A stretch of DNA of 63,649 nucleotides, the filler included, from Stramenopiles sp. TOSAG23-2 (Eukaryota): the NCBI GenBank assembly GCA_900128395.1. It is 12 parts of 12 records of this genome, joined end to end, with 100 filler letters (N's around TTAATTAATTAA, not from the genome) between each part and the next. Parts side by side here need not be neighbours in the genome. Positions count along the whole stretch, not along the records: positions 1 to 6,515 come from LT650452.1; 11 more parts are not named here. One strand, 5' to 3'. A program made the translations under genes and the position numbers. The notes below the pieces were generated by a model. The model did no database searches and was not told the origin of the DNA. It saw only the letters and a program-made list of their open reading frames with translations. This document shows, in pieces, positions 1-7,138 of this stretch. Each line of letters starts with the position of its first letter. Positions within the stretch are counted from its first letter, which is position 1.

Positions 1-3000
1 AATGGTAGTAATGGTAATAATAATAATATGACATTGAAAGAATACGTGAATCAAGAAGGTAAACGTAGTGATAGTTTCGAATGTACACCTTTAATGGCAG
101 CTGCAGAGAAAGAACATTTCCAAATAGTTAAATATTTGATTGAACAAGGTGAAGCTGATCTTAATATTGGAAATAGCAGACATGGATTAACTGCATTACA
201 TTGGGCAGCACAATGGAACAAAAAGAGTACTGCGGTGATTAATTTGTTATTAACTAATATGTCTCTTAATAGCATTAATAAGAAGGATTCGGTGGGATAC
301 ACTCCCCTGGACAGGGCATGTTATGGTAATCATAGTCCAATTAAACAAAAGATCATTGATCTTATACGTTCAAAAGGTGGAAAACGCGGAGATGAATTAT
401 CTAATTTACACAATGCAATCAAATCTGAAAATATGGAATTATTTCGGAAATATATGAATGAAGATGATATTAGTTTGCAAGGATACATGTCCAATGATCC
501 GGAAAAATCCCTATTACGATACGCAATCGATGTTTTAAATATGAACATATATAAAATAATAGCAAATGATAAACGTATCAATCAAAACAATGAAGAATTC
601 GAAATAAATGGTAAAACCAATTTACATTACATATGCGAGATGCAAGTTAATAAATCTAACGAAGGCAAACATTTTGAATTAACAAAACATATTTATAACA
701 AAATAAAACCAACATACCATGATAGAGTAGGTCGTGATCGTTATGCTATTGTGCGTCATATTTGTAGTTGGCCATTAGTCGTTAAATGGGCCAAATCGCT
801 CGGTACCAAATTTCAACGTTATAAAATTACCAACGAAGAAAAACCTGTACATCAATCCTCAACATCAATTGTATTTTTTGCTACGGATATTGAAGACAAC
901 AATAACCAAGTAGCATTAAAATTAATGAAGAATTATGTTGAATTTGAGCGTGAGATTACTGCACGATTTATTAGTGATACTAATTTTGATGGTACAATTG
1001 ATAAATGTGTTGTCAAAGTACTTGGTTGGCATTTACCAAACGATGAAACAAAACTTCCATTAGAAAACCATCATGAAAAACAACGAGTTTGTGTCGTAGA
1101 ACCAACTTTTCACTCTGAGTACCAATATGTATTAGTCATGGAACGTGGTATTGTATCGTTATTTCACGAGCTTTCTACACAACGTATTGCTGGTTACAAT
1201 CCAAATACAATTGTCAATATATTTCATCAAGCTGTGACAAAAGTAAAAGAATTGCATCATGATTTACAATATGTACATTGTGATTTAAAACCACGCAATT
1301 TTTTATATGTTAGACGCGATGAAAAAGAAGAACAATTGCTATTATGTGATATGGATGCTGCATGTGAAAAAAATAGTCAACGGGATAACAGCTTAAAATA
1401 TAGTACCGGATATTGTCCACCGGAACTAGCTCGTTGTATATTCACTACTAATGGTGGCAAGTTGAAAAAAATCGAAACATCATTTGATGTTTGGTCATTA
1501 GGTGTATTATTATATGAATTGTGCACGGGTCAAAATTTATTTCCACAAGATATTAGTAATGATAATATTGTCAATGAAATTGATAAAACAATTTTATGTG
1601 CATGGCATACTATCCCTGATTCATATTTAAGATTAGTTGATTTTCCAACAAATCCACAAATGTCAAAAGATGCCAGAAATTTAATTCGTTGGTGTTTAAA
1701 AGGTAAAAGCCAACCTGATAACATTCTATCTCTTGAAGACAAATTAAATTATCGACCATCACTTCAAAATATATTGGATCACCGTTTTTTGAATCCAAGC
1801 AATAAAAACGAACCGGGTCAACAACCTATGAAATACCATATGTTTATATCCCATATGCAAGCTGAATCGTCTGGGGAAGTCGGTACATTATTTAATGCAT
1901 TGAAACAATCCGGGGTACATGTATGGCGTGATATGTCACAGAAAAAAATTGATGCAAATAGTATGATACAAGGTGTGATTGATTCTGATATATTTGTTGT
2001 CATGTTAACAAATAGTTATATGTCACGATGGTATTGTTTGTTAGAATTTGCTACTGCATTGTTCTATAACAAACCAATTATTGTTATTGTAGAAGAAAAT
2101 CCAATGTTTTGGCAATGGGATTTAAAACGATGGCAAGAAAATATGTGTTCGCGCAAGTCAAATCATAAAAATGCGGAAGAACGTGGATGGAAAAGTTCAA
2201 TGGGATTTGATGCAAAAGGGAAAATGGTTTCAACGTTACAAAATACATATGCGGACCTTGAGACCAAAGATATGGGATTTACTATCTTTTGGGAGTTAAA
2301 AGATAGTCCCAATACTGCAAATCATATACGTAAATTGATAATTGATATGTATGATAATGATCAAATGATACCACATCGTCGTCGTGGATTTGAATATGAA
2401 GCTATGGTATATGAATTGTTAAGTCGTGCTGAGATTCAAGTACCTAGACCAATTCATCCTTGTTTTAAAACACATTCGTTTATGGTTATTTATGCTGAAA
2501 ATTCAGTTGATAATATAAAATCTGGGAAACATATTGGTCAAGGTATAGAAAAATCATTACTGTCTCGCCAACAAACAATTGCATCTGTTGTTTCAGAAGC
2601 TGAATATGTTGTAATAATTTTGACCGGAGGTGTATTAGAAGATGATAGTTGTCTTCGTAATTTAAAAATGGTTTTGGATGAAAAAAAAGAATTATTGTTC
2701 ATCATGTCAAAAGTAGATGATTGGATATTTGAAGCTAGTGATACTGAAATAAAAGCAAATAATAATACTGCTAAAATAATACGAAAGATGTTAAATGGTC
2801 ATGAAGTTATGTCGTATCGACCAAAAGGTGGAAATCGTAATTATGAACATGAATCAATGATGAATGAAATGATGATGGAACGTTTGGGTGTGGCAACAGT
2901 AATAGAAGATGTTGGAACAACAATGGTGAACGATCAGGAGAATGTTGTGGTGGATACGGAAGAAGAAGAAGAGAAAGTTAGTGTTAATGTCAAGGTGGAC

Positions 3001-3045
3001 ATTTTAAAAAATAGTGGTGCCGTGCGACTGTTAGATCCGAGATAA
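1..3045 (+). CDS. Ankyrin-repeat / protein kinase / TIR / TIR-like multidomain protein (5'-truncated; frame open from position 1)
   Basis: Ankyrin motifs TPLMAAA, TALHWAA, TPLDRA. Kinase motifs VALKLMK, FEREI, HCDLKPRN, LCDMD (DFG position), YCPPE, DVWSLG. TIR motifs MFISH..VHVWRD..SDIFVVMLTNSYMSRWYCLLE..KPIIVI. Second TIR-like fold FMVIYA..AEYVVIILTGGVLEDDSCLRNL. Confidence 0.85.
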   Translation, partial: NGSNGNNNNMTLKEYVNQEGKRSDSFECTPLMAAAEKEHFQIVKYLIEQGEADLNIGNSRHGLTALHWAAQWNKKSTAVINLLLTNMSLNSINKKDSVGYTPLDRACYGNHSPIKQKIIDLIRSKGGKRGDELSNLHNAIKSENMELFRKYMNEDDISLQGYMSNDPEKSLLRYAIDVLNMNIYKIIANDKRINQNNEEFEINGKTNLHYICEMQVNKSNEGKHFELTKHIYNKIKPTYHDRVGRDRYAIVRHICSWPLVVKWAKSLGTKFQRYKITNEEKPVHQSSTSIVFFATDIEDNNNQVALKLMKNYVEFEREITARFISDTNFDGTIDKCVVKVLGWHLPNDETKLPLENHHEKQRVCVVEPTFHSEYQYVLVMERGIVSLFHELSTQRIAGYNPNTIVNIFHQAVTKVKELHHDLQYVHCDLKPRNFLYVRRDEKEEQLLLCDMDAACEKNSQRDNSLKYSTGYCPPELARCIFTTNGGKLKKIETSFDVWSLGVLLYELCTGQNLFPQDISNDNIVNEIDKTILCAWHTIPDSYLRLVDFPTNPQMSKDARNLIRWCLKGKSQPDNILSLEDKLNYRPSLQNILDHRFLNPSNKNEPGQQPMKYHMFISHMQAESSGEVGTLFNALKQSGVHVWRDMSQKKIDANSMIQGVIDSDIFVVMLTNSYMSRWYCLLEFATALFYNKPIIVIVEENPMFWQWDLKRWQENMCSRKSNHKNAEERGWKSSMGFDAKGKMVSTLQNTYADLETKDMGFTIFWELKDSPNTANHIRKLIIDMYDNDQMIPHRRRGFEYEAMVYELLSRAEIQVPRPIHPCFKTHSFMVIYAENSVDNIKSGKHIGQGIEKSLLSRQQTIASVVSEAEYVVIILTGGVLEDDSCLRNLKMVLDEKKELLFIMSKVDDWIFEASDTEIKANNNTAKIIRKMLNGHEVMSYRPKGGNRNYEHESMMNEMMMERLGVATVIEDVGTTMVNDQENVVVDTEEEEEKVSVNVKVDILKNSGAVRLLDPR

Positions 3046-3770
3046 ACATTCCCCACCATGGTTGGGGGATGTTTAGAAAATTTTTTTAAATTTAAGCGTA
3101 GTTTTGTTAACAAGTCTTCAAAATTTTTAGAGACATTTAATTTTGGAAATACGTAAATTGTGGTTTTTTGTGTTATATTTTAAAGTTAATATTAACATGT
3201 ATTGTAATACTATTCTCATGCTAAAAATAGTATATTGTAATCGGAAATTATTAATCCATTGCCGAAGGCGAGAAAAAAATGAGAAAATTAAATTTTGATA
3301 ATCAAACTTGTCAGTGATAAAAATTATGTTTGATTAAATTAATCAAATTGTTTGATTTTGTTTGATTAGGATTAACCCTACACACTATTTTTACCATATT
3401 GACCCAACAAATATGGGTGGGCCACCCAAAATTATGTTTGATTAGTGGTGCCGTCGTACGGTGCCCATTATGCTAAAATGTCCACCTTGGTTAATGTTGA
3501 TGATGATGAACGCAAAGAAGATTGAAAAAAAAAGTTTTTAGGAAGCTCGGAAACCCGGAAGAGAGAATAATTTTAGAAAAGTTAAAATCTACTGGAAATA
3601 CGCGTACGAATATAAAAAACCAAAAAAATATACAACAAAAAATAATTAAAAAGAGAAAAAAAGAGATTTTAAAACTCATTAAATTTTTTATTTTCTAATC
3701 TCACTCCAATCACTCTCACTTCATTTCATCGCACATCGCACCACATATCATCTACACCATAATGTTTTTA

Positions 3771-3807
3771 AACCTTACACCCTACACCCTACACCCTACA
3801 CCCTACA
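3771..3807. repeat. Short (CCCTACA)n heptamer tandem repeat
   Basis: ccttacaccctacaccctacaccctacaccctacac. Confidence 0.8.
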
Positions 3808-3832
3808 CGCACACATTTAAAAACCTTTTTTC

Positions 3833-6515
3833 TCAAAACATATCCATAATTGATTTAGTCACGATCGTATGTTCCACTAAACGTTTTAATCGTGTATCGG
3901 GTTGATCGATAACATATTCCTCAATTTGTTTATTCATTTCTTCTTCATTTAATTTATGTTCACGTGCCAATGCCATTTCAGGTGGCAATGCTGGACCAAA
4001 TATTTGTTTCATATCTTCAATTTCCTTTAATTTCTTCTGTTTCCATACTTCACTATCAATACGAAAATGTATATCTTCTCGTACATCATTATCATCCTCA
4101 TTATTATGTTGTTGCAACAAATCAACATCATCATCATCTTCATGATAATTTTCATATTCAATTGTAAATTCATCATCATTATTGTTGTTATCATCATCAT
4201 TATTTGAGTTATGATTAAATTTTAATCGAGCAATACGTGTGGGTGGACGTATTTTTTCCTTCATTTGTTTTTTTTTGGTTGATAATCCATATTGTAAATT
4301 CATTATAATAGCATTGATTTCATCTGCAATTTGTATACGATATTTTTGATTCATGAAATAATTATAATCTGGTGCACCTATTAAAGCCATTAATGCTCCT
4401 ACTAAACAATCTTCACGTTGAAAATGTTTCTTAGCAAATGCAATACTATCTATAATATGTTGATCATATAAATGATCATCTTCATCTTCATAAACTTTCA
4501 TATCAATTACGTCGTCTACGTCGGCCTCATCGTTTTTTTTATCATTCTTGTTGGCATCTGTATTATTAGTATTATTATTATTATTATTATTGTTGTTATT
4601 ATCTGTTTTTTCTTCATCGTCGTCTTGTTGGAGGACCGTGTTGTCATTACCCGTAGCAGTAGTATTCGTATTTGTTGTCGTCGTATTTGATGAAGATGCA
4701 TCATTACCACTCATATTATTAACAATATTTTTTGTAATTGGATCAACTTGATAATTTGTTTTAGTATTAAATAACTTCATCATACCTTCATTTATTAAAT
4801 TTTCATGTTGTTTTAATAATTCAATTTTTTGTAATTCTTGTAATTTTGCTATTTCAGCATCTATATCAATCGTTTTTAATAATTCTTCATTTTGTTTATT
4901 TATTCGTTCTCGTTGCTTTTTACGTTTGATTAAATATTCTTCCTTTGTTTTTGGGTATGATTGACGTATATGATTCACATATTCTAATACATGAAATAAA
5001 TATTCGATTTTTGCATTTTTATAATATCGTTCATATTTATTTTTGATTAATTTTTTAGCTTTTTTTAATTTATTTTCTATAATTAATTTACGTAATTTTG
5101 ATCGTGTTTGTAAATCATCATCTACTTCAAATGATGTGGTATTGTTAATATCTACATTTGATGTGGTGGTGGAAGAAGTGGTTGTTGTTGTTGTTGTTGT
5201 GGTGGTGGTGGTGGTGGTACTAGTTTCATTATCATTGTGGATATTATCTGTTGTTTTACTAGCAGCATCATTATTACTACTATTATTATTATTATTATTA
5301 CCATTTGTATTGGTAGATTTCTTACTACCAACACTTGCTTTGTTATTACTATTTTTAATTTGATCATTTTTTAATAATATTTCTAAGGTATCTTTATATC
5401 CATTCATATATAAATATTCATATACAATATGTCTCATTTCTTCTGAACTTATATTAGTTGCCATCAATTGTTTATTACGTTGTATATCGACTTCATCGAT
5501 AAATTTAACAATATCAAATTTAAATTTGGATGGTAAAAAAATTGCTTTTACAACTTCACCTGGTGAATGTACAGATATAGCGGGATGTAATTTTGTTGCT
5601 CTATCATTACGTAATAATGTTGGTACACGACTTTTATTATTATAATGTTTATTTGTTTGGTTATTGGTAGTTGAAGATGTTTCCGATTGTAAATCAGCCG
5701 GTTTATCCGGTGCGAAAACTTGTCTCATTTCTTCTAATTGTTTTTCATCATCTAATATTGGTATACCGGATGAAGTTTTTGTCATTGGTTTGTACGTATA
5801 TTCTTGTTCTTTTTTTTTTGGTTGTTTGGTAGTATTGTTATTCTCGTTTGACGATGTGGTTGTTGTTGTTGTGGTGGTGGTGGTGTTAGTCGATGAAGAC
5901 GGTGGCGGTGGTGGTACGATGTTTGTTGATGGTGCTAATGGTGATGATAATTTCAAGACAGGTATGTAATCATTATTAAATAACCCTGTGTTGTTGTTAT
6001 TATTATTATTATTTGATGAAGTTGGTGATGATGCTGGTGCAATAATTGGTGATATCATCGATGTTAATGAATTATTATTACGTGTGTTGTTTTTCATATT
6101 CATATCTTTCTTTGTCATATCATCATCATCATCATTATCTACATCCATCGCTTTTGGTTTCATTGATTTTTTCATATCATTATTATTCTTTGGTTTTAAA
6201 TGTATATCTGGTTCTTCATTTGTAAATATATCATTCATTCCATCATCTTCAATACCATTGTATTTAATTGGTTCAATTTGACAATTTATATTTAATGATT
6301 TTGTAAAATCCTTTTTTGTTGGTAAATTTAAATCTACTGTACCGATTAATGAACCATTTTTTGTGAAAAATATAAAACGTTCTTCAAAATGTATACCACA
6401 ACCAACTACATCACCGGTACTAAATTGTCTTTGTTCTATTGATTTTTTATTATTGTTACTATTGTTTGGAAATAATAATTCATTATTAGTATTGTTATTA
6501 TCCTCGTCGTCATCA
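3833..6515 (-). CDS. RanBP9/RanBP10 (Gid1)-like SPRY-LisH-CTLH-CRA protein, 5'-truncated by contig end
   Basis: Frame is open upstream of 6238 and reads FSTGDVVGCGIHFEERFIFFTKNG (SPRY). Also LHPAISVHSPGEVVKAIF..FKFDI (SPRY end), IVYEYLYMNGYKDTLEIL (LisH), RSKLRKLIIENKLKKAKKLI (CTLH), LMALIG..RIQIADEINAII (CRA). Confidence 0.85.
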
Positions 6516-7138
6516 NNNNNNNNNNNNNNNNNNNNNNNNNNNNNNNNNNNNNNNNNNNNTTAATTAATTAANNNNNNNNNNNNNNNNNNNNNNNNNNNNN
6601 NNNNNNNNNNNNNNNAATTACAGCAAGTGTCGTGAAAAAATGTGATACGATTATGCATCATACGTAAAAAAAGTTTTTTTCGTCCCTGTTGGGCTGCGAT
6701 GGGTATATATACCATGTGTGGGAAGAGTGTCTCAGAGACTGGAGTTTGTAGAGAGAGATATTAGAGATGCACACCTTCGACGCACTTTTTAAAATATATT
6801 TCCTTAATTGTACGATATAAATCGTCGTTTAATATTAGGTATCATAGACGAGTACGAAGTTCGTTAGGAGTTTAATGTGTGCTTTAAAACGTGAAAGACG
6901 AAAAGAGAGCGAGAGAGAGATATTCAAAATATATATAATTTAATCTTAAAATGCAAATATAACTTACGACGTATTTTTTTAATTTTACTCATGATAATTC
7001 CAGAAAGAATACAATAACTGAGACAAATCTCACTAAACTAAAAGCTCGTAACATATTGCGATAGAGTCCAATTAAATTCCACACAGAGTGTGCCAATATT
7101 TTTAAGATGATATTTAAACTTGATCTTCAACGCTTTAA

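Follow-up and report, generated by a model that had tools for sequence, protein, structure and literature searches.

A gene at the start of a 63,649-nucleotide stretch of DNA from Stramenopiles sp. TOSAG23-2 (GenBank assembly GCA_900128395.1), twelve joined parts of the genome referred to here as the window, encodes a protein in which ankyrin repeats are followed by a protein kinase and two consecutive TIR domains. The protein belongs to a family whose kinase-TIR-TIR core is constant and whose N-termini are variable, and its ankyrin module is a member of a genome-wide hypervariable library whose binding face shows diversifying selection. It is read here, with a probability of about 0.55, as a soluble, one-chain intracellular non-self sensor of a marine protist that would switch on NAD+ cleavage by the first TIR domain (TIR1), with the second (TIR2) possibly completing or capping the TIR1 site. 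The original prediction, made from the sequence alone, had proposed this domain order, which is borne out by Pfam, profile-profile comparison and structural models. Its suggestion that a sensor, a kinase, an active TIR and an inactive TIR are joined in a single chain gains support from residue conservation and predicted folds.

The kinase-TIR-TIR core

Conservation was assessed among relatives recovered with a query spanning both TIR regions: the best 150 of 832 clusters (E up to 0.001), 19 other matches and open reading frames (ORFs) from the same genome. Shorter pieces were dropped, which left 137 segments of TIR1 (140 aa or longer, score >100), 112 of TIR2 and 63 near-complete kinases; a few of the rows are near duplicates. 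A kinase directly precedes TIR1 in 91 of the 94 cases with enough upstream sequence, a count free of query bias, and TIR2 follows TIR1 in 100 of 103, a count biased by a query that contained both TIRs. The best split of a joint tree of 101 pairs sets apart all TIR1 domains and one other row (support 1.0), and the pairwise distances of TIR1 and TIR2 are correlated (rho 0.52, p 0.002). These patterns fit one old duplication that would have been inherited as a unit. The N-terminal parts of 30 long members carry ankyrin, LRR, WD40, SPRY, WWE, PA or CH domains, or none that was recognised.

The TOSAG23-2 genome itself holds at least five further long paralogues with the entire core, together with fragments, and its TIR_2 matches number at least 30. 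Truncated or short 3′ pieces, mainly of TIR2 and with 68-92% identity, occur at L007, L008, L009, L010 and L012 (contigs C615, C1657, C1109, C1348 and C7005) and are either gene fragments or assembly ends. Two relatives depart from the usual arrangement by eye: in P0002 a single kinase is flanked on either side by a TIR pair, and in P0016 the pair stands behind a different kinase, one with a Gly loop. Together they indicate that the two TIRs travel jointly. A bacterial kinase-TIR cluster is listed among the look-alikes in ESM Atlas, and viral contigs gave no match in two single-protein scans sensitive to close relatives only.

TIR1 has the fold and the catalytic residues of an enzymatic TIR, and NAD+ cleavage (NADase activity) is predicted from them. 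Aligned to Roq1, E682 stands opposite E86, D644 opposite D45 and Y678 opposite W82 (numbering by eye, in agreement with E86 and D45 in PMC13732033), which places a Glu at the catalytic position as originally claimed. Conservation of this residue among homologues had been set beforehand as a test of that claim, and the Glu is kept in 136 of 137 relatives. The BB-loop Asp (D644) is found in 130 of 132 and an aromatic at position 678, the WxxxE position, in 135 of 137; in bacterial TIRs an aromatic at this position has been linked to cyclic products (10.1101/2022.05.07.491051). A model of TIR1 and TIR2 together reached a predicted local distance difference test score (pLDDT) of 95.2 and a predicted template modelling score (pTM) of 0.92, and the best structural match of TIR1 is the SARM1 TIR (Z 16.2, root-mean-square deviation (rmsd) 1.9, 130 residues aligned). 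TIR1 also keeps an E face of its own, comprising F703, R793-R795 and E798.

TIR2 is homologous to TIR1 (profile-profile comparison, 98.9%, E 3.6e-16) and gave no match in the Pfam scan of the window protein. Its AlphaFold model (pLDDT 91.9) also finds the SARM1 TIR as best match (Z 12.9, rmsd 2.6, 116 residues aligned). The top 20 of 50 rows of a structure search are all TIR or SEFIR domains, TIRs lead the Foldseek list too, and 49% of the members of the top-ranking ESM Atlas cluster carry TIR_2. A failure of the C-terminal domains to adopt TIR folds had been named in advance as grounds for refutation; both domains model as TIR. The description of the second domain as TIR-like with Asn in the catalytic position thus holds for the fold and for N887, which aligns with E682. 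Asn as a conserved substitute for Glu was ruled out, as column 887 varies freely (Q20 L14 E12 H11 A10 N8, n=105).

TIR2 lacks both a conserved catalytic Glu and a BB-loop Asp. The span from alphaA to betaC is 24 residues long, against 35 in TIR1, alphaA is variable and betaB is shrunk to a two-residue bridge in the model. Conservation is found elsewhere in the domain, at W908 (107/109), F910 (109/112), E935 (110/112), R940 (111/111) and E949 (109/110). The NADase site of TIR domains is formed across the BE interface, by one domain's BB loop together with betaD, betaE and alphaE of the next (PMC11364022), and the adenine is stacked by an aromatic of the second subunit, SARM1 W662 or its equivalent. 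W908-x-F910 and E935 of TIR2 map by eye to SARM1 F660-x-W662 and N679. Since the betaD, EE and alphaE elements are conserved and the Glu and most of the BB region are gone, TIR2 appears to have kept the acceptor face of this interface and lost the donor side. It would then act as a built-in second subunit that gives the adenine side of the two-domain site of TIR1 and, having no BB loop, would end head-to-tail growth. That TIR2 both completes the TIR1 site and caps growth is a tentative proposal, somewhat short of an even chance. Complex prediction with TIR1, NAD and TIR2 as separate chains spoke neither for nor against this (score 0.00 in two runs in which the alignment was not used), and mutual information across 107 paired TIR1-TIR2 rows was uninformative, returning only pairs of invariant columns.

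Under another reading the immune role is kept and TIR2 is a brake or scaffold, masking the BB loop or E face of TIR1 until it is shifted by the kinase or the sensor, after which TIR1 domains from separate chains would build the site between them, as happens in SARM1 strands. This would suit a TIR1 in which the BB side and the E side are both retained, and a pair that packs rigidly without ligand, where a ready-made site would be dangerous. It is at odds with E935, which is nearly invariant, has no conserved equivalent in TIR1 and is placed, by eye, where SARM1 N679 faces the ligand. A brake is considered unlikely.

The kinase has an intact catalytic set. K307 is conserved in 60/60 relatives, E318 in 62/63, D428 in 62/63, K430, N433 and D450 each in 63/63. 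The DFG motif is replaced by D-[LMF]-D, with D452 kept in 58/63, and the GxGxxG loop by H-x-S-x-T (H284 45/57, S286 54/58). The original prediction had noted DMD in place of DFG and no clear Gly-rich loop; both features are present, as a conserved family trait and not as decay. MNK kinases work with DFD (PMC3326643). The kinase is probably active, as predicted from its catalytic residues, and a pseudokinase was rejected on their conservation. That the protein is an enzymatically silent scaffold built on a pseudokinase is hardly credible: the missing Gly-rich loop and the D-M-D motif would fit it, whereas six catalytic residues conserved at 98-100% in 60-63 relatives, an omega of 0.16 among paralogues and the functional DFD of MNK kinases all argue against it. 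Profile searches of PDB sequences (A1, A2) were dominated by the kinases TTK, MNK, PIM and DYRK; they named no close kinase family and gave no residue-level SARM1 alignment. An insert of 12 codons in the kinase C-lobe (nt 1707-1754) is absent from paralogues and RNA contigs.

One paralogue in the same genome, on contig C723 (L034:1746-6104), has by eye Asn in place of the catalytic Asp of its kinase and Ala at the Glu position of TIR1, and is still a single frame of 1,453 codons. In this single case, read by eye, the sole placeable TIR1 without the Glu also lacks the kinase catalytic Asp. The C723 protein is possibly a doubly dead decoy or regulator.

The ankyrin module and the proposed mechanism

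The first 400 nt of the gene have 255 candidate copies genome-wide, of which 40 were scored. From 41 loci, fetched mostly from the best matches, 47 full ankyrin modules were aligned, that of the window included. Across 1,079 module pairs the median synonymous divergence (dS) is 0.11, the median nonsynonymous divergence (dN) 0.20 and the median of their ratio (omega) 1.8, with omega >1 in 95%. A codon model was fitted to 43 modules after removal of three odd rows and one duplicate. Omega is 2.1 overall, 10.0 on 17 binding-face codons, fixed beforehand from positions in designed ankyrin repeat proteins (DARPins), and 1.6 on the remaining 101. When the face was broadened to 26 codons, after the data had been seen, omega is 7.4 on the face (twice the log-likelihood difference, 2dL, 101.8 against 1) and 1.06 on the 92-codon scaffold. 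A tree-free comparison of nonsynonymous (pN) and synonymous (pS) differences gives pN 0.44 and pS 0.20 on the face, and pN 0.10 and pS 0.08 on the scaffold. The median identity to the module of the window is 81% for scaffold positions and 27% for face positions. Omega among six paralogues of the genome is 0.16 for the kinase, 0.13 for TIR1 and 0.22 for TIR2. Selection on the face lends independent support to a predicted sensor role of the module.

Linkage between module sites weakens as they lie further apart (p 0.002), and 83% of the pairs of sites are incompatible under the four-gamete test, so the module copies recombine and the tree-based omega is inflated. The third positions of variable ankyrin codons are often fixed. 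Templated mutagenesis of the kind directed by diversity-generating retroelements was considered and rejected as unnecessary; third positions do change where Trp, Arg or Met require it. The module also occurs in other genes. In some ORFs it follows, in fusion, an Mrr-type nuclease domain or an EDR1-peptidase plus EDR1-type kinase, and one TIR ORF runs into the module start at a contig end (loci L046:1048-3162, L056:205-2784, L022:3-1319). Genes of about 270-400 aa that end in the ankyrin module, two or three per locus, are found at L060, L066, L065, L043, L057 and L061.

The window gene and its closest paralogue, on contig C665, have the same residue at all 26 face positions and no synonymous difference in the module, and their bodies differ at dS 0.06-0.36. 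As none of the listed contigs bridges nt 1-356, this points to recent conversion or assembly collapse. Taken further, the module could be a passenger, either a fast-spreading, converting repeat or an assembler misjoin, and the core would be switched otherwise. The identical faces, the unbridged 5′ part and the free swapping of N-termini would be expected of a passenger. On the other side, a module of the same family stands at the same place in C665, C2393, C7422, C1850 and C8725, and relatives from other sources likewise have ankyrins before the kinase. A passenger is considered very unlikely.

The preferred reading, a soluble non-self sensor, would work in five steps. The ankyrin module would bind a foreign or modified protein, its specificity coming from a library whose binding faces recombine, as the selection on the face suggests. 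Binding would then cluster the protein or lift self-inhibition, and the D-x-D kinase, probably active, would phosphorylate itself or a partner as a switch. TIR1 has a full NADase pocket by sequence and model, TIR2 is packed rigidly against TIR1 in the model, and TIR2 may serve as the second subunit outlined above. NAD+ cleavage would finally either deplete the cell of NAD+ or yield a cyclic ADP-ribose isomer, with defence or cell death as the outcome. In Gephyrocapsa, both virus-infected and resistant cells show induction of TIR genes, whose proteins are reported to lack NBS and LRR (PMC12489294). By analogy with these virus-induced haptophyte genes, a possible antiviral role of the window protein has indirect support only; bacteria, parasites or other non-self would fit the findings as well as viruses.

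Several points weigh against this reading. According to a 2026 preprint, evidence that TIRs regulate cell death in microeukaryotes is lacking (PMC13142454). Many relatives have no ankyrins, and 36 of 46 ankyrin modules close their ORF rather than stand before a kinase. The scaffold omega is not below 1, and recombination inflates the tree-based values. The missing bridge between nt 1-356 and the gene body among the listed contigs leaves the ankyrin variant found here unverified, and the linkage of TIR2 to TIR1 carries the query bias described above. For TIR2, the mapping of W908, F910 and E935 to SARM1 rests on a by-eye alignment, and the effect of SARM1 W662A is modest in one paper (PMC11874154) and essential in another. 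R940 and E949 are the TIR2 equivalents of R793 and E798 in the E face that TIR1 also keeps, so the conservation of TIR2 may be partly structural.

The same protein could instead be a signalling enzyme outside defence, serving prey, partner or kin recognition or a stress response, with TIR1 making a nucleotide messenger without cell death. Diversifying selection implies many changing ligands and leaves their identity unspecified, and the N-terminus of C665 begins with MGC-x-x-S, which looks like a lipid-anchor signal. Resistant haptophyte cells also express TIR genes without dying (PMC12489294). These observations are countered by the combination of a constant scaffold, a hypervariable concave face and recombination, which is the pattern of fungal non-self receptors (PMC4986451), and by fusions that join the ankyrin module with a restriction-type nuclease and with a further TIR. 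A role outside defence is considered distinctly improbable.

[quoted passage not shown] Here a DARPin-like recombining ankyrin library would be joined to a single-chain TIR heterodimer that would cleave NAD+ in cis under a fused kinase. Such a class is doubtful, as is the attendant idea that filament assembly would be unneeded, unlike in the known TIR enzymes of the cited papers.

The protein bears on the question of TIR enzymes as a means of defence in microbial eukaryotes. One TIR NADase site needs two domains, and heteromeric cases have only recently been shown, in plant NLR pairs (PMC13732033). A fixed active/inactive TIR pair of about 365 aa in one chain, well modelled, could show if the site is completed or obstructed by a catalytically dead TIR. 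The positively selected ankyrin library, tied to an output enzyme, is a candidate recognition repertoire linked to an effector.

Gene structure and surroundings

The gene occupies one frame without a stop, 1,014 codons long, whose 5′ end is open. Its first base is the first base of contig G000:C3036, which corresponds to window positions 1-6515 only; the assembly is eukaryotic, AT-rich and 32.8 Mb in size. Pfam places Ank_2 at residues 7-89 (E 3e-17), Pkinase at 360-569 (E 2.6e-26) and TIR_2 at 615-699 (E 6.7e-11). Every kinase and TIR motif listed in the original prediction was located: VALK with K307, HCDLKPRN at 426-433, CDMD at 449-452, PPE at 473-475, SRWYCLLE with E682 and DSCLRNL with N887. 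The linker at aa 130-258 had no Pfam match, and its resemblance to ankyrin repeats was judged by eye. The predicted extent of the gene stands as far as the frame is concerned and needs revision at both ends, the gene being 5′-truncated and its last 17 codons derived from a miniature inverted-repeat transposable element (MITE).

The missing 5′ end can be judged from C665, which is 99% identical over nt 1-400 and encodes a complete protein of 1,105 aa. C665 has 113 residues upstream of the Met equivalent to window nt 28, where the window retains nine, so about 104 codons are probably absent from the 5′ end of the window. Its MGC-x-x-S start is no family trait, since only 2 of 48 Met-initial relatives begin with Met-Gly. 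Hydropathy in 19-residue windows revealed no transmembrane segment in the window protein (the top windows, 1.6-1.75, fall within modelled TIR domains; the absent N-terminus was judged from C665).

A contig of run X1 spans 357-3034 with 0 differences, and X1 may be the source of the window DNA. The runs with matches are seawater or marine metagenomes. RNA contigs have gaps across the gene and are 91-98% alike; they therefore point to relatives present in polyA libraries and are not evidence that this locus is expressed.

The MITE is inserted in the acidic tail, downstream of TIR2, and is flanked by an 8-bp target duplication (2983-2990 and 3490-3497), from which we take it to be hAT-type. It supplies the stop codon as well as the final 17 codons. 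The eight original final codons were pushed out to 3499-3525, and 3490-3529 matches the 3′ end of a paralogue. One further copy at 99% lies on C1527, with partial ones elsewhere.

Table 1. Coordinates of the gene, its domains and neighbouring features, counted along the window
Feature	Position	Strand	Description
Ankyrin-kinase-TIR-TIR gene	1..3045	+	single-exon ORF, 1,014 aa, 5′-truncated
Ankyrin module, three repeats, aa 10-129, candidate sensor	28..387	+	Pfam Ank
Linker with degenerate ankyrin-like motifs, aa 130-258	388..774	+	common to close paralogues, omega 0.29
Protein kinase, D-[LMF]-D family, aa 259-600	775..1800	+	Pfam, residue conservation
TIR1, predicted NADase, aa 609-812	1825..2436	+	S617-H618, W642-x-D644, Y678, C679, E682
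TIR2, predicted non-catalytic TIR, aa 824-965	2470..2895	+	W908, F910, E935, R940, E949 conserved; AF2 model, fold searches
Acidic tail	2896..2990	+	poorly conserved, 20-69% identity to paralogues where aligned
MITE, 499 bp	2991..3489	.	perfect 16-bp terminal inverted repeats, 2991-3006 / 3474-3489
Convergent neighbour with SPRY domain	3833..6559	-	interrupted by a run of N
ORF, 1,800 codons	20243..25645	-	no Pfam match at E 0.01
Ankyrin-repeat ORF, 498 codons	29494..30990	-	a further ankyrin-repeat ORF
ORF, 1,905 codons	32980..38697	-	14 WW stretches and IQ motifs

Comparison with known systems

SARM1 and C. elegans TIR-1 are the best structural match of both TIR domains, and TIR1 shares with them the catalytic Glu, the BB-loop Asp and the alphaC aromatic. 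Identity is 15-21%, and TIR1 has a long insertion after betaD. The SARM1 site uses identical TIRs of different chains, whereas the window protein has two differing TIRs in one chain. ARM and SAM were not among the 12 Pfam families found in the window scan; the ankyrin module and kinase stand in their place, and the protein falls outside the SARM1 family.

Plant immunity offers a second parallel. In the TIR-NLR pair of RRS1-R with RPS4, as here, an active TIR is coupled with a TIR that has no Glu and a short BB loop (PMC13732033), and the loss of Glu and BB loop in trans in sensor TIRs of plant NLR pairs is the nearest precedent (PMC13732033). RRS1-R and RPS4 differ in being two genes with NB-ARC, LRR and an AE interface; the window protein is a single chain that carries a kinase and lacks NB-ARC, and alphaA of TIR2 is unconserved. 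Neither NB-ARC nor NACHT appeared in the window scan or among the five best families listed for C665, whose sequence has no room for one. The ankyrin repeats of fungal NLRs likewise combine a constant scaffold, a selected concave face, recombination and varied effectors (Dyrka et al., 2014; PMC4986451). The ankyrin module shows the same marks of a diversifying-repeat sensor, namely a conserved scaffold (with an omega of 1.06), selection on the face and recombination. It differs from the fungal receptors in having no NACHT or NB-ARC and in being a three-repeat module spread over dozens of loci, N-terminal to the kinase.

A recent TIR atlas contains relatives of the core (Culbertson et al., 2026, preprint; PMC13142454, supplement 1). 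Paulinella micropora P014918 and Telonema subtile P009337 and P032251 are tabulated as Pkinase-TIR6-TIR6, and Picozoa COSAG01 P062668 and Schizochytrium P017868 have, by eye, the same kinase and TIR1 motifs as the window protein. In the part of the supplement covered, 58 of 75 "Pkinase" places (1-14 and 29-72), these Pkinase-TIR rows are all "Not in supported Clade", and "kinase" occurs 0 times in the main text. Five family motifs had no match in the atlas supplements and two of six others had one match each, in a weak search with cells cut at 400 characters. Within these parts of the atlas, the kinase-TIR-TIR family is tabulated and not described. A literature search, with most subscription journals outside it, found no paper describing the family.

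The closest named architecture is that of the choanoflagellate "Kinase TIRs" and "Kinase TLRs" (Toll-like receptors), in which a kinase is likewise followed by a TIR (Richter et al., 2018; PMC6040629). The window protein has the arrangement that defines a "Kinase TIR", Pkinase then TIR without a transmembrane segment, and some acanthoecid kinase-TIRs of the atlas table have a similar kinase with D-L-D and K-P-R-N (by eye). In the atlas rows covered, the choanoflagellate proteins have no tandem TIR pair behind the kinase, and their TIR subtype differs by eye. The window protein is set apart by an extra, non-catalytic TIR and a diversifying ankyrin sensor, and its family spans several supergroups. 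"Kinase TIRs" have been described as uncharacterised and as unique to choanoflagellates (PMC6040629), so the present family extends this architecture beyond them. The "Kinase TIR" arrangement, active/inactive TIR pairs and selected ankyrins are each known separately; the literature search, with most subscription journals outside it, showed no paper on their combination.

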